A stretch of DNA of 64,000 bases from an uncultured virus (IMG/VR IMGVR_UViG_3300025261_000058) (Duplodnaviria > Heunggongvirae > Uroviricota > Caudoviricetes), in the IMG/VR virus record IMGVR_UViG_3300025261_000058; one strand, given 5' to 3'. The position numbers were made by a program, and so were the translations under genes. How positions within the stretch are numbered: position 1 is the stretch's first letter; every line of letters starts with the position of its first letter. Under the pieces are notes generated by a model. That model made no database searches. It saw only the letters and a program-made list of their open reading frames with translations, and was not told the DNA's origin. Below, piece by piece: positions 32,397 through 38,812 of this stretch.

Positions 32397-32410
32397 CGGA
32401 GATCCAGAAT

Positions 32411-32439
32411 AAAAAAGCCAGCAGCCTTTCGGCGCCGGC
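32411..32439 (-). terminator. Intrinsic terminator closing the ncRNA tract
   Basis: GCCGGC-GCC-GAAA-GGC-T-GCTGGC plus T6. Confidence 0.7.
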
Positions 32440-32868
32440 AGACGTCGAAGGGGGAGTCGACGCGAGGAGAATTGGATGAAAGCTACTTTGTCGCAGACCG
32501 CGTGACCCGCAGGTGGCTATCGCCAGGCGCGTCGCTAATTTCACCTTCGTGGCGGCGCACTCCCGGAGCAGTCCCAAATCCGGCCGGATCTACCCACCGC
32601 GTTGTCGCAGAAGGCTATGGCTTGCTTTGTCCGCGCTGAATGCGCCTGCATGAAGGGCCTCGTTTCGTGAGGCTCTACGGCGATTGACCAGTTCGCACCG
32701 AACGAGGTTAAGAACTGCCTTGATAGCTCATGCGAGCCCAATCGGGCGGCAGACACCCGCTTGTCCGGTCTCTGCTCCCGGCATGTTCTTGCCGCTTACG
32801 ATTATGCGGCGTCTGTGTTGGTGCTTTCCTCGTGCCACTAAGGGGCAAACAGCCCAGACCGATTTCGT

Positions 32869-32966
32869 TGAGAGTGGCCGGCGCTGATCTCCGGCACGTC
32901 CGGTTCTCTTGCACTTCCCCGGCTCCGGGGCAGGGTTGGGCGCATCAGCCTGCGCATTCACTCTCA
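32869..32966 (-). ncRNA. C4-type antisense RNA (P1 c4 / P4 CI-like)
   Basis: TGAGAGTG AAT GCGC-AGGCTGAT-GCGC ... GCCGG-AGATCAGCG-CCGGC CACTCTCA matches the recalled C4 consensus scaffold. Confidence 0.8.
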
Positions 32967-33168
32967 CGGCTGACGACTGCGCGCAGCATAAGGTTCGCTT
33001 ACCGGCGCAAACAGATGATCAATCTGTCGCAACCGTGCCCTGCACCACCGCAATCGTCATGCGTGAAAGCGATATCGACATAACGATATCGAACCAATTT
33101 GCTCTCACGACTGACGCCTTGTTGGCCCACCCCGGTAGCTCCCGAAGCCAAAGCGTCATGCGCGAAAG
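32961..33168 (-). ncRNA. Two tandem same-scaffold hairpin RNAs (32961-33069, 33102-33168)
   Basis: Both CTTTCRCG-CA-TGACG...CGTCA-GY-CGTGAGAG, with unrelated inner domains. Confidence 0.6.
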
Positions 33169-33468
33169 GGCTCCGCCGCCCGTATCAAACTGCTACGCCG
33201 ACCGTAGTTGGCGGCGAAGCGGGGATCATGGCTTGGGAAGATTGTCCCTGCGCGGACGAATGTCCATGTCACACCTCAATCAAGTTTATCCATCGGATCG
33301 CAACACTGCCGGCCGTCGATCAACTCTCGCGCGCACCACCAACAGCGAACGGCTCGCAAACGTCGATCAGCCACTCCGAGTAGCCGGTAAGGGTGTGGGC
33401 GCATGCGAGGTGCCACGTTGCGGCCACCATCGGGCCAAAGGTGAGGATTGACTCCCAACCATCGAAAG

Positions 33469-34389
33469 TCATGTCGCCTCTCGCTCCACGAATTCCCATC
33501 TGTATCCGTAAGCGCTTTTCCTGCGCCCGGCGCACACATGGCTCAGGTATGAAGACGTAGCCTTTGATATTCCCGAGTCTTTCAGCCAGATCACCGCATG
33601 CACCAGCGATTCAAACACCTTGCCGGTATCAACGATTCTGACGGGCTTTGCCCTTGCTGCGAATGATGCTGCAGCGGCTTGGGCCCTAGCTTCTGGTGAT
33701 CGAGCGTTCATCGCCGCCGATAACTTCGCCCTGTGATCATCTGACAGGCGCTTGCCCATGCGGGCTGCGGACAACTTAGCGCGCGTCTCTGCAGTCACAA
33801 CCCGGTTCTTCAGCCGTTCAGACCTCCTGCGCCGCTCATCGGGAGATTGACCAAACAGTGTGCTCTTGGCGGACAAGATTGCTTTGGTTTCGGCAGATAG
33901 AGGTTTCCCCCGCCTTGCTTGCGCGGACCTCGCTATCGCCTCGGTCGTCGGCGACTTTCCTTTGCGAATGGCAGATGCTTTCTCCCGCCACTCCGGAGTA
34001 TCCCGGATCGCCCTCATAGCCGCCCTGGCAGCCGCGGACATCTTTCTGCCAGTCAAGGCAGCAGAAATCTTGTGGCATGTCGCCTCAGGGCGTTTCATGC
34101 CGAGATGACTGCCCGCAGTCTTGCAGATGTTGTAGCCCGGCACCAAGCAATCAATAGCTAGCTGCTCATACATGAGCAAATCAGGCTTTCCGCAGATCAA
34201 CAGGATCTCAAACCGCAACCCTGACTCGCCATGCTTTTTAAATGCCGATTGCAGATGCGGGTTATGGTGCGACCCTGCTCGAAGGTGATGAAGATGGACA
34301 TGCCACCTTCTTCTGATATTAACCGCCGAGCCTACGTATTGCTTCCCAGACGCGCTGGTAATGGCATAAATGCCAGCAACGTTATTCAT
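33469..34389 (-). CDS. GIY-YIG homing endonuclease with NUMOD3-type repeats
   Basis: GIYAI...YVGSA..I.RRW..H, E, YN; repeated G.K.S.ET.AK.S. Confidence 0.92.
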   Translation of the reverse strand: MNNVAGIYAITSASGKQYVGSAVNIRRRWHVHLHHLRAGSHHNPHLQSAFKKHGESGLRFEILLICGKPDLLMYEQLAIDCLVPGYNICKTAGSHLGMKRPEATCHKISAALTGRKMSAAARAAMRAIRDTPEWREKASAIRKGKSPTTEAIARSAQARRGKPLSAETKAILSAKSTLFGQSPDERRRRSERLKNRVVTAETRAKLSAARMGKRLSDDHRAKLSAAMNARSPEARAQAAAASFAARAKPVRIVDTGKVFESLVHAVIWLKDSGISKATSSYLSHVCAGRRKSAYGYRWEFVEREAT

Positions 34390-34510
34390 TCTTTACCTTG
34401 ACTAGAGGTAGACCATTTGAGGGGCGCGGAAGATTGGCGGTCAAACCAACCGTGTCGGGAGCTACCCTATCCGCGCTCTGCAATTATATCTGCTTCACAG
34501 CCTTCCTCAA
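34390..34510 (-). promoter_or_regulatory. Internal promoter and structured 5' leader of the GIY-YIG gene
   Basis: TTGAGG-16bp-TATAAT (34510-34483); GCGCGGA/TCCGCGC closes two hairpins. Confidence 0.6.
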
Positions 34511-34889: not shown

Positions 34890-34930
34890 GAAATGAAAAA
34901 GCCCCGCGAGCTTTTAGGCTGGCAGGGCTT
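34890..34930 (-). terminator. tR'-like terminator
   Basis: AAGCCCTGC..AGC-loop-GCT.GCGGGGCTT plus TTTTCATTT. Confidence 0.7.
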
Positions 34931-35039
34931 CGGAAATTCTGAGACGAGTTTACCCACTCGCGGGGATTTGGGGTGAGCCTTTCGGCTCTACTGCACAGCC
35001 TTCCGACACAGAAGGCCGACAATCAAGCAGTACGGGCAC

Positions 35040-35067
35040 AGTATATACCAGATGCGGTGTTGTGCAA
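35040..35067 (-). promoter_or_regulatory. Late promoter (pR'-like)
   Basis: TTGCAC-16bp-TATACT downstream of Q-like gene, ~140 nt before a terminator. Confidence 0.65.
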
Positions 35068-35362: not shown

Positions 35363-35583
35363 GACGTTGTCCCCTTCAGTACACGCAGGCGTGATTCGAG
35401 CTGCTCTATTTCTGCTTGGTGGTCGCGCTCTATACGCGCATGCTCGATAGGAATTTGAGCGTTGATAGACCTAACCAGTGCTTCAGCCTCGTGTACCGAT
35501 AGGTTATAGCTCGCAGTGGTGTCCACGTCATAACCTGACCATTGGTCTCGGATTTTTGTGGGTATCGAAATACGAATGCTCAT
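35359..35583 (-). CDS. Hypothetical protein
   Basis: ATGA-coupled on both sides. Confidence 0.6.
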   Translation of the reverse strand: MSIRISIPTKIRDQWSGYDVDTTASYNLSVHEAEALVRSINAQIPIEHARIERDHQAEIEQLESRLRVLKGTTS

Positions 35584-36089
35584 GCCGCCTCCCGCATCAG
35601 CGAACTTACCTTGCTACCTGTCGCCGCGATAGACGCCATCATGCAAGTCATCGTCTTGTCGAAGTTCTTCTGATGCTTCGACCACGATTCGACCGGCAGG
35701 CCGGCGGCCAAAGCGCGCTCGCTATCGGAGTGCCTCTTGACACCTGAGCCGTCACATTTCGGGCACTTGTCGTAACGCGCGCCGTTGAGGATCAGACCTG
35801 CACCATTGCACGGGACGCAGTTGTCGAGCACGAATTCTTTGATGCAAGCCGTTGCCAGTTTCTGCGCGTAGGTCAGTTCAACACCGAGCGAGCATTTCGC
35901 CTTGTGCGCCAAAAGATGAATTGCCCGCTTTCCCGCCGCGGCGTCCGAGCCAAACTTGAACCGGAATAGGGCGGCGCCGAGCGGGTCAGAAAGGCCCATC
36001 GCTGTGAGTCGATCGACCGATTTCTCTTCCCGCTCATTCCACGCGAGATTCGAACTTCTGACGTCACTTGCATACTTGTCTTTGAACAT
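35580..36089 (-). CDS. Late antiterminator Q-like protein
   Basis: C..C.G.G...C.KC.GSG zinc finger; position upstream of pR'. Confidence 0.7.
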   Translation of the reverse strand: MFKDKYASDVRSSNLAWNEREEKSVDRLTAMGLSDPLGAALFRFKFGSDAAAGKRAIHLLAHKAKCSLGVELTYAQKLATACIKEFVLDNCVPCNGAGLILNGARYDKCPKCDGSGVKRHSDSERALAAGLPVESWSKHQKNFDKTMTCMMASIAATGSKVSSLMREAA

Positions 36090-36408
36090 CACGAACCCCG
36101 CACGTGGAAACAAAATGTTGTTGATTAAACACATGAAACTCTGTTATGAATTCTAGCAGAAAAGCGCTTCGTAGTCCTTATTTGAAGCGCTGTCAATCAC
36201 CTGTTTTGCGATTATTCTTCGAGCCCTGTAACGCCGTACATGTACATCGGCTCTGCCGGCTTCTCTACCTCTGTAACTGGCGCATCCCGATACTTCCTCC
36301 GCTTAGTCGGCGCAACGTAGCGGGGACGGTGGAGGAGGTACACAGCAGCGAAGACTGCGCAGTTGAATACGCCTAGGCCGTAGAAGCCGACGCAGAGGAT
36401 TACGGTTT

Positions 36409-37428: not shown

Positions 37429-38214
37429 TCATGCGGCTTCCGCCTTCTTGGCGAGATACTTCCTAACGATCTCTTCCTCGCTGAGCCCCTTGCGCCGGAA
37501 GTGATAGAAGGATGAAATCGGTATGCCGGCGTCGCGCATCCATTCGGTGGTTATCTTTGATACGCCATCGACGACTATCGACTTCTTCCAGAATCCATCC
37601 GGGTTCGTTTCAAAAACTTCGTCTAGCGGCAAGCCGCGCCTTAGGCGCTGAATGAACGTGGTGTAAGGGATGCCGTACTGATCGCACCATTCTGCGACGC
37701 ATTTCCGTTCGCCGCGGTATTCAACGATGTTGCTTGTTGACTTGTTCCAATGCTGCTCCCTTTTGGTCGCCCAGCGGCAATTACCGGGCTCGTAGTTGCC
37801 ATTTACGTCATCGCGCTCGATGGTCATGCCCGGTGGTTTCTCTCCCATATCGGCCAAGAAGTTCTCGAAAGAATGCCGCCACCGTTCGCACACCGCTATC
37901 CCTCGGCCGCCGTATCGAGCGTAGCGCGACGCCTTCGGGTTTGTGCAGCGCGTAATCATTCGCGCCCACACGGCATACTCCGGGGTTTTGCTTAGTCCAT
38001 GAGTACGCGCTCGATCGCCAGTTGCCTCAAAGGCAAGGCATCCGCAACTCTTCGATTTTCCCGCAGCGACATTAGGTATCGATATTTCCTTCGTAACCCC
38101 GCAATCGCACGCAAATATCCCGTAACGCGTATTGGAGCGTCGTTCAGCGATCTCCTCTTTAAAGGTCAACCGCCCGAACCTGTCATTAGGCTGCATAACG
38201 TGTTTCGGTTTCAC
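37429..38214 (-). CDS. HNH-type (His-Me finger) homing endonuclease-like protein
   Basis: FGRLT, C.CDCG, SCGC, W..M..RC...YGGRGI.VC.RW, ER.D.NG.Y.P.NCRWAT; start uncertain. Confidence 0.8.
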   Translation of the reverse strand: MKPKHVMQPNDRFGRLTFKEEIAERRSNTRYGIFACDCGVTKEISIPNVAAGKSKSCGCLAFEATGDRARTHGLSKTPEYAVWARMITRCTNPKASRYARYGGRGIAVCERWRHSFENFLADMGEKPPGMTIERDDVNGNYEPGNCRWATKREQHWNKSTSNIVEYRGERKCVAEWCDQYGIPYTTFIQRLRRGLPLDEVFETNPDGFWKKSIVVDGVSKITTEWMRDAGIPISSFYHFRRKGLSEEEIVRKYLAKKAEAA

Positions 38215-38812
38215 GTTCTCTCCTTGCCTTTGCACGTCTCGCCTTTTTCCGGAAAATCCGCTTGAGGCGAGTCAGATAATCAATGTCAAACTTCCGTACA
38301 GACTGATCAACCTCAAGCGCCTCGATTGCTTCGAGGCCGAATTTTTCGATCATTCCCTTGCGCATCTCAACGGTGTTCGACCCTAGGTACCTATTGCACT
38401 TAACGCATTGTGCGGCGCAGTTTTTCAGGTTGAACCGGTGATGTGCGGCGCTTCCGGTGCTGCGGTAATGCCCGCAATCGACAGCGCCGCCGAACGCTTC
38501 CCTCGACGGGATGCCGCAGCTAATGCAGGGCAACCCGTAGTCGCGCTCTCGCACGTAGGCGTTAAAGGCGGCTTGCGCCTCCTTCAAATGCGCCCCGCGA
38601 GTCTTGGTTTTTTCGAGCGCAACTCGAATCGACTTCTTCTCCTCGCGCTTGGCCTTGGCCGCTTGCTTTGCCTTGGCCGTCTCGGTCAGAGCTATTGCGC
38701 AAGGGACGCTGCAAGCCTTGGACATGCTTGAAATAGGGGCAAAACTCGCGCCACAATTTCGGCAGCGTTTGGGCTTTAGTTTCTTCTTGACAGGAAGGGA
38801 AGAGCGGATCAT
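38186..38812 (-). CDS. ninG: NinG/Rap recombination endonuclease
   Basis: AQ.AFN.YVR.RD...PCISCG, D.GHYRS.G.A, N...QC..CN. Confidence 0.9.
   Translation of the reverse strand: MIRSSLPVKKKLKPKRCRNCGASFAPISSMSKACSVPCAIALTETAKAKQAAKAKREEKKSIRVALEKTKTRGAHLKEAQAAFNAYVRERDYGLPCISCGIPSREAFGGAVDCGHYRSTGSAAHHRFNLKNCAAQCVKCNRYLGSNTVEMRKGMIEKFGLEAIEALEVDQSVRKFDIDYLTRLKRIFRKKARRAKARRERETETRYAA

Follow-up and report, generated by a model that had tools for sequence, protein, structure and literature searches.

The described RNA closest to the leader analysed here is int-alpA (RF02996; Weinberg et al. 2017, PMC5737381), the Rfam consensus of which already has a loop and a tail able to pair. In the main text of PMC5737381, as far as accessible, alpA has 0 mentions, and two alternative boxes, palindromic loops and an antisense partner are all absent from it; the supplement may cover the pseudoknot or the loops. 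In the accessible portions of the literature int-alpA figures as a table entry and a gene-order label only, and its placement between integrase and alpA genes is deduced from the name of the motif. Literature searches with the motif letters and the concept of the leader and cassette described below found nothing relevant.

In the c4/CI systems a processed RNA resides near toxic genes, and the antisense loop has two alternative target boxes, one of which lies at the ribosome site. The P1/P7 c4 antisense RNA motif (RF01695) is listed in PMC2864571. IsrK, a phage leader RNA of Salmonella Gifsy-1, switches translation on its own long transcript by way of a second copy that works in trans (PMC4825925). 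The sequence-only reading of the locus studied here had proposed a pair of the c4/CI type, in which a small hairpin RNA tames or activates the GIY-YIG endonuclease gene next to it by means of a 12-nt complement to the gene leader. We hold instead, with moderate confidence, that the 12-nt match links two independent modules, an int-alpA-type leader and an RNA cassette, which we call cassette A.

The mobile nuclease unit and its leader

The window, i.e. the whole stretch of 64,000 nucleotides of viral DNA that was analysed, includes the late region of a temperate phage, where the locus has a Q-like gene on one side and the terminase genes on the other. Window features described below are on the minus strand. 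The late region starts with a Q-like antiterminator gene (35580-36134; PHROG 127, E 2e-7), the product of which has relatives in Paraburkholderia genomes, and continues with a possible late promoter (TTGCAC-16-TATACT, 35040-35067), spotted by eye and absent from the promoter-scan list, and with a terminator-like hairpin followed by a U-run (34890-34935; z -4.23). A sigma-70-like promoter (TTGAGG-16-TATAAT, 34483-34510; 10/12 match) precedes the gene encoding a GIY-YIG and NUMOD3 homing-type endonuclease of 306 aa (33469-34389; PF01541, PF07460; PHROG 314, E 9e-31). Sigma-70-like sites in the promoter-scan region are as many as expected (2 found, 2.1 expected); across the leader family, a -10-like hexamer stands ahead of 29 of 80 leaders, versus 1 of 80 control windows.

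Three contigs from run X11 join positions 33445/33447 to 34493/34500, with 18-25 other letters in between. Lacking 33446-34492, they define a mobile unit of about 1.05 kb, made of the -10 box, the leader and the nuclease gene; the -35 box is left outside. Leader and GIY-YIG gene thus move together. Upstream of Q the window hosts a second selfish-type nuclease gene (37429-38235, minus strand; HNH, PHROG 374), ahead of which model R1, built from relatives, finds no int-alpA-type leader. A tRNA scan of the window gave no hits, and BLAST searches of phages and plasmids with the region, or with cassette A, returned one 32-nt match, the rest being noise.

The leader folds into an int-alpA-type three-way junction (34424-34476), in which P1 (34476-34470 with 34430-34424) encloses hairpin 1 (34467-34457), whose core (34455-34466) is the upstream 12-nt arm, and P2 (34451-34432, loop 34444-34439). 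The 15-mer around this arm has at least 119 viral matches, and those listed read almost entirely as leaders. The RF02996 cut-off was passed by 13 of 20 tested relatives of the window leader. In the window, Rfam models found nothing at cut-off and six chance-level matches at E 10, and the leader itself has no RF02996 match even at E 10. A model derived from 63 relatives, the window leader excluded, recognises it at 38.8 bits (E 6e-8), and finds no other copy in the window. P1 and P2 covary, as double-change cells are 262 versus 71.5 in shuffles for 75 sequences, in an alignment fitted to the model with training sequences included, where the three pairs of hairpin 1, fixed by the search pattern, are uninformative. 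The sequence-only reading is supported as to the leader, a genuine structured RNA that is conserved, as the family and its covariation indicate, but it missed the kinship of this RNA with int-alpA of Rfam.

RF02996 matches occur in 43 of 150 Paraburkholderia genomes. A manual count of the genes located 3' of 75 leaders, with start codons assigned by script, gave 19 nucleases, 17 replication-type genes (DUF1376, HTH_36, lambda P), 3 Bro-N/Rha, 2 other, and 34 without a Pfam match. AlpA is found in none of these 75 ORFs, and the window copy heads the GIY-YIG gene. The window leader is probably a divergent member of a widespread class of int-alpA-type switches, which head homing nucleases and replication initiators.

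Several observations made along the way concern the diversity of the class. In L002, L020 and L031 the leader begins right behind an apparent tRNA 3' end. Some int-alpA RNAs (L719:6435-6524, minus strand; L720:905-995, plus strand; L730; L734) have no box 2 (see below) or start codon, and in L719 and L720 a terminator-like hairpin after box 1 closes the RNA, which suggests that stand-alone small-RNA forms may exist. Similar HNH-type genes of 241 aa, located downstream of the array (L292:11285-12095, plus strand; L525:5243-6053, minus strand), have int-alpA leaders differing in hairpin 1 and in loop-box pairs, the P2 loop of L292 being that of the window. A separate recurring motif shares the 14-mer TAGGGTAGCACCCG, followed by TAACAGCG and a strong Shine-Dalgarno, but has neither P1 nor P2; it heads seemingly similar phage ORFs (L528, L536, L564, L566, L568, L585, L588, L597, and others in L526-L645).

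The P2 loop is complementary to two boxes. Box 1 (34416-34420), able to form a pseudoknot, and box 2 (34396-34402), which overlaps the AAGG Shine-Dalgarno ahead of the ATG at 34389, can each make 5 Watson-Crick pairs with the loop. In the 84 parsable leaders, out of 112 distinct ones, box 1 sits just behind P1 and box 2 at the Shine-Dalgarno. Mean loop pairing is 5.8 Watson-Crick pairs with box 1, versus 3.4 in swapped pairs (maximum 3.7), and 5.1 with box 2, versus 3.8 (maximum 4.1); neither value was reached in 200 swap rounds. Plausibly, the ribosome site would be free when the P2 loop pairs with box 1, and blocked when it pairs with box 2 on the Shine-Dalgarno. We regard it as fairly probable that leader and cassette A are independent modules, and that the leader is the self-contained translation switch of the mobile nuclease unit, of which A is not the dedicated partner. 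This toggling would provide a testable mechanism for an orphan Rfam motif heading many phage nuclease and replication genes.

Hairpin 1 may add a further level of control. In 50 of the 58 listed RF02996 matches in Paraburkholderia, all those read, hairpin-1 loops are GACG, GGCC, GCGC, CGCG, GAUC or AGCU. Palindromic loops and GACG tetraloops are known as dimer links in retroviruses (PMC516450). A 4-nt palindrome occurs in 11 of 21 distinct hairpin-1 interiors, where 6.4 are expected by within-shuffle (P 0.018) and 3.9 by pooled controls (P 0.0004), P values that are optimistic because the 21 interiors are related; counting wobble pairs and GACG, self-complementary interiors are 15 of 21. The common UAGCA variant is not palindromic. 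That the loop is usually self-complementary suggests, by analogy, dose sensing based on dimers: two leader copies might kiss via hairpin 1, the putative docking site, through a self-complementary or GACG loop, and output would depend on transcript dose with either sign, being on or off at high dose.

Payload-swapping cassettes of the late RNA array

Beyond the nuclease gene the late strand carries an array of RNA hairpins. It opens with a conserved hairpin (33170-33220; z -2.19) matched in related prophages, and is followed by cassette A (33102-33168; z -3.67; homologues in L343 and L499), in which an apex with the loop GAGCUA rests on a constant base stem that includes a C.U mismatch. The downstream 12-nt arm (33134-33145), complement of hairpin 1 of the leader, coincides with the apex. 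Cassette B (32960-33069; z -3.92 at 33070-32940) has the base stem of A and an unrelated, longer apex. A probable third cassette with a degenerate stem (32545-32655) is a weak candidate suggested by folding (z -0.92), and a terminator-like hairpin (32405-32440; z -3.30 at 32470-32400) ends the array.

The downstream element is therefore a real hairpin RNA, as had been surmised, and belongs to a larger family. The stem pattern has 109 viral matches, and a stricter form identified 67 distinct cassettes plus one reverse-strand duplicate. Cassette apexes are unrelated to each other, at least 67 distinct cassettes being built on one base stem. Although the pattern would have admitted a pair at the central position, 66 of 67 cassettes have a mismatch there; the four positions that follow inward are paired in 57-62 of the 67, and the remaining stem was fixed by the pattern. 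The base helix, of about 18-20 bp with a conserved central mismatch, resembles that of RNase III-processed cassettes, and we take the constant stem to be a candidate RNase III-like processing site. Cassette A would probably be cut from the late transcript at this stem. Comparison of 18 cassette loci with Rfam gave no match but neighbouring tRNAs, and the family is uncatalogued in Rfam.

G.U pairs in the stem and the orientation of tRNAs suggest that cassettes are on the late strand. In the 10 loci read among those found via the Q-like protein, the array position hosts a hypervariable set of tRNAs and hairpins, and tRNA-Ser, -Trp and -Tyr were found on the late strand in 5 of 14 array loci of related prophages. 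Cassette A is part of the late RNA array of its host phage.

Cassette loci were found in L312-L424, L289-L305 and L167, besides the window (33168-32545, minus strand); L292, L293, L299 and L305 have stems of a second type. Payloads are compact, and may be tRNA-like (L290, L291), H-type pseudoknot-like (L339) or T-loop-like (L342, L423). A lone A homologue (L343:3990-4070, minus strand) lies behind an ORF resembling a terminase small subunit, in a phage of different organisation, and, standing alone, suggests that cassettes move singly. The D arm of an array tRNA-Trp (L499:1267-1339, minus strand; L297:9155-9226; L293:8699-8771) contains GGUAGCUC, an 8-nt complement of the loop region of A; tRNA-Trp with GGUAGCUC and cassette A are found in one array in G531, and the complement is probably incidental.

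Additional homologues of A proved elusive. No further one was found among 32 viral matches, beyond L343 and the window itself, nor in 38 genomes of another genus, nor in 341 genomes of the family. A metagenome scan gave 40 matches, of which only the window's own sequence features the cassette stem, and the matches listed for a loose stem-plus-loop pattern are noise.

Cassette A and the leaders: chance, antisense or pair

Two exact 12-nt complements (33134-33145 and 34455-34466), set 1309 nt apart, are both on the minus strand and flank the GIY-YIG/NUMOD3 gene (34389-33469); no further exact copy is present in the window. Minus-strand folding reproduced the structures initially proposed, the GGG-UAGCU-CCC hairpin in the leader and the GAGCUA loop atop a long stem downstream, with a z of -3.67 for the downstream element and, for the leader by itself, of -1.2 to -1.4. 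At spacings of 60-1400 nt the window has 6 pairs of exact inverted 12-mers, and the repeat as such is therefore ordinary. The Markov expectation for any leader 12-mer within 2.7 kb is 0.013, the earlier rough estimate being 0.5%, and lowers to 0.00017 for the 15-nt conserved core. Both arms being G/C hairpins around AGCU, a chance match should be likelier than these figures. A scan with the downstream 15-mer gave 47 exact matches, which are chance-like except for the source of the window; G001, L158, L288 and L429 are the window sequence itself, and not independent.

It is an even bet that the complement is a coincidence between two G/C hairpins with AGCU-type loops, and that A, like the other payloads, has an unrelated job, as a tRNA-like decoy or a protein sponge. 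The abundance of comparable inverted 12-mers fits such a hypothesis, as do the choice of this case for its match, the lack of co-inheritance of leader and A, and the count of 12-nt complements around 50 cassettes with context, which are 1 on the same strand, that of the window, and 2 in the opposite-strand control. Less easily explained by coincidence are the location of the match on the 15-nt conserved core, and two further signals, loop tracking and a second seed, which point to pairing with leaders, and which are considered next.

Alternatively, A could be a processed, trans-acting antisense RNA directed to leaders of the GGGUAGC(U/A)CCC type, carried by incoming nuclease modules or by replication genes of rival phages. 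This hypothesis has perhaps one chance in three, spoken loosely, can be compatible with the leader having its own switch, and includes the possible targeting of the same leader in rival phages, the second option of the sequence-only reading. The alternative draws on the existence of a second common leader form, with A for U, which has at least 120 matches (55 of 88 tested are true leaders); two further core variants occur among 12 matches in 401 genomes. The sole loop change among the three copies of A (GUGCUA in L343) is the exact 11-nt complement of the A-form. A possible second seed, GGUGGG in the window (33126-33131) and GGCAGG in both homologues, faces CCUGCC, the commonest 6-mer (41) of 121 core-masked leaders. 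A complement of CCUGCC lies 3' of the loop in 2 of 3 copies of A. When the 12-mer and the core are masked, these two CA-type copies are still complementary to 46% (at least 6 nt) and 19% (at least 7 nt) of the 121 leaders; either level is reached by 0 of 446 control windows, matched in length and drawn from 50 other apexes, and by about 3% of shuffles (42 and 54 of 1500). The UG version of the window pairs with CCUGCC by wobble only; its mean of 7.4 pairs exceeds the 97th percentile of 406 controls. On 53 U-type leaders apex-only binding, partly by construction, reaches -13.9 and -13.5 kcal/mol, and the L343 apex binds A-type leaders at -8.9 versus -4.7 for U-type ones; 48 other apexes, in the same apex-only comparison, bind at -2.9 +/- 1.9. 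Both GAGCUA copies lie at most 1.5 kb from some int-alpA leader, as does 1 other distinct locus among 75, a count obtained with a leader model having stems mis-registered by one column, which may miss leaders.

Several data weigh on the opposite side. The independent copies of A are only three, the case was selected because of its match, and testing of the second seed followed its visual discovery. In Paraburkholderia, the likely host genus, 213 genomes contain 1 U-type and 0 A-type leaders, and other hairpin types prevail. The A of G531 ranks 31st of 51 apexes against its own neighbouring leader; whole cassettes barely bind (mean -2.9 on U-type leaders, +2.2 for L343 on A-type); the 3' arm of the window A is unremarkable by Watson-Crick count; a second change in L343 breaks an end pair; and other apexes perform no better than a sense control against other hairpin types. 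The broader notion that A binds int-alpA leaders in general was discarded, having failed on 29 of 37 parsable Paraburkholderia-type leaders. Nonetheless, the U/A (T/A) tracking and the second seed of A are hard to ascribe to chance alone.

Were A to act in this way, its loop would kiss hairpin 1 and zip to 12 bp; its 3' arm would then pair with CCUGCC, bridging P1, so that P2 would open and the switch be reset. The order of the two seeds is such that A could run across P1 as a new junction. Phages would then need nothing but RNA to silence selfish nucleases and competitors, or to trip them; for specificity, the U/A leader variants found in nature offer a ready-made test. A more speculative scenario, which we consider rather doubtful, is that phages of the Burkholderiaceae type hold modular arrays of nuclease-released RNAs, with A as an allele-matched antisense against a pan-phage leader that counts transcripts by loop-loop dimers, the whole amounting to an RNA-only conflict over homing nucleases and replication initiators.

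A protein or a small ligand, in place of another RNA, is an unlikely partner for hairpin 1 and the junction; it would make the leader a riboswitch-like or autogenous control element. The leader has the anatomy of an expression platform, and its junction letters (UAG, CGAA, CUG) are strongly conserved in distant phages, as such a role would suggest. Yet, the sequence of hairpin 1 varies freely while the self-complementarity of the loop is kept, orthologous nuclease genes in L292 and G531 have different hairpins, and the proteins encoded downstream of leaders are mutually unrelated.

The dedicated c4/CI-like pair initially envisaged, with A as tamer or activator of the GIY-YIG gene, is very improbable. 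It could invoke the proximity of A and leader on one transcript strand, and the binding of the released window apex to the window leader (-12.0 kcal/mol, versus -9.6 for the G531 apex). However, A is located about 280 bp outside the mobile unit, and a 75-kb contig from run X4 keeps leader and gene, with 51 other letters at the apexes of A and B; the contig covers 33157-34908 with 41 differences, and none falls inside the leader among the 40 of 132 rows listed. A 12-nt complement was found within 3 kb of 0 of 80 other leader loci, and complements of at least 9 nt near the 80 leaders (7, versus 2 in a direct-copy control) lie in contexts that are not cassette-like. The leader core is absent from all other cassette loci, and 17 other loci found via the Q-like protein have neither this core nor an A loop in the array. 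G531 carries in an equivalent array an A with an identical loop, and no matching leader in 11.4 Mb; another int-alpA leader, preceding an HNH-type gene, lies there 1.5 kb from A. In L343 (record 81% complete) A is likewise present without a matching leader. The 12-bp duplex does not form when leader and A are simply cofolded (-0.9 kcal/mol), and no binding is predicted for whole cassette A on the window leader (+1.4). The occurrence of leader without A in a near-identical phage, and of A without matching leader, along with the lack of predicted binding of unprocessed A, leave the pair unsupported, as does the anti-RBS switch that the leader already has. An origin of A as an inverted leader copy was considered and dropped, because segment order differs.

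Comparison with described systems

The window leader shares with int-alpA the three-way junction and the junction letters, and is too divergent for the Rfam model. What recalls c4/CI is that a single loop is complementary to either of two boxes, of which one is at the ribosome site. Here, however, the loop complementary to the ribosome-site box is the P2 loop, placed inside the leader itself, and not that of cassette A; moreover, neither the window nor the cassette loci match C4 covariance models, and A neither lies between the targets, nor is co-inherited or covaries with them. IsrK has no sequence or Rfam match to the window leader, and invades a long helix, according to the accessible part of its description, whereas the proposal for the leader is a kissing-type hairpin together with a short pseudoknot between loop and box. 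The palindromic and GACG loop classes of retroviral dimer-linkage hairpins, as far as described in the portion of PMC516450 available, recur in hairpin 1, an analogy that implies no homology. As in the tRNA clusters of lambdoid late operons, arrays of the related prophages hold tRNAs on the late strand; what distinguishes them, and is brought to light here, is an uncatalogued family of payload-swapping RNA cassettes, with constant stem and variable payload and without an Rfam counterpart, interspersed between the tRNAs of late operons.
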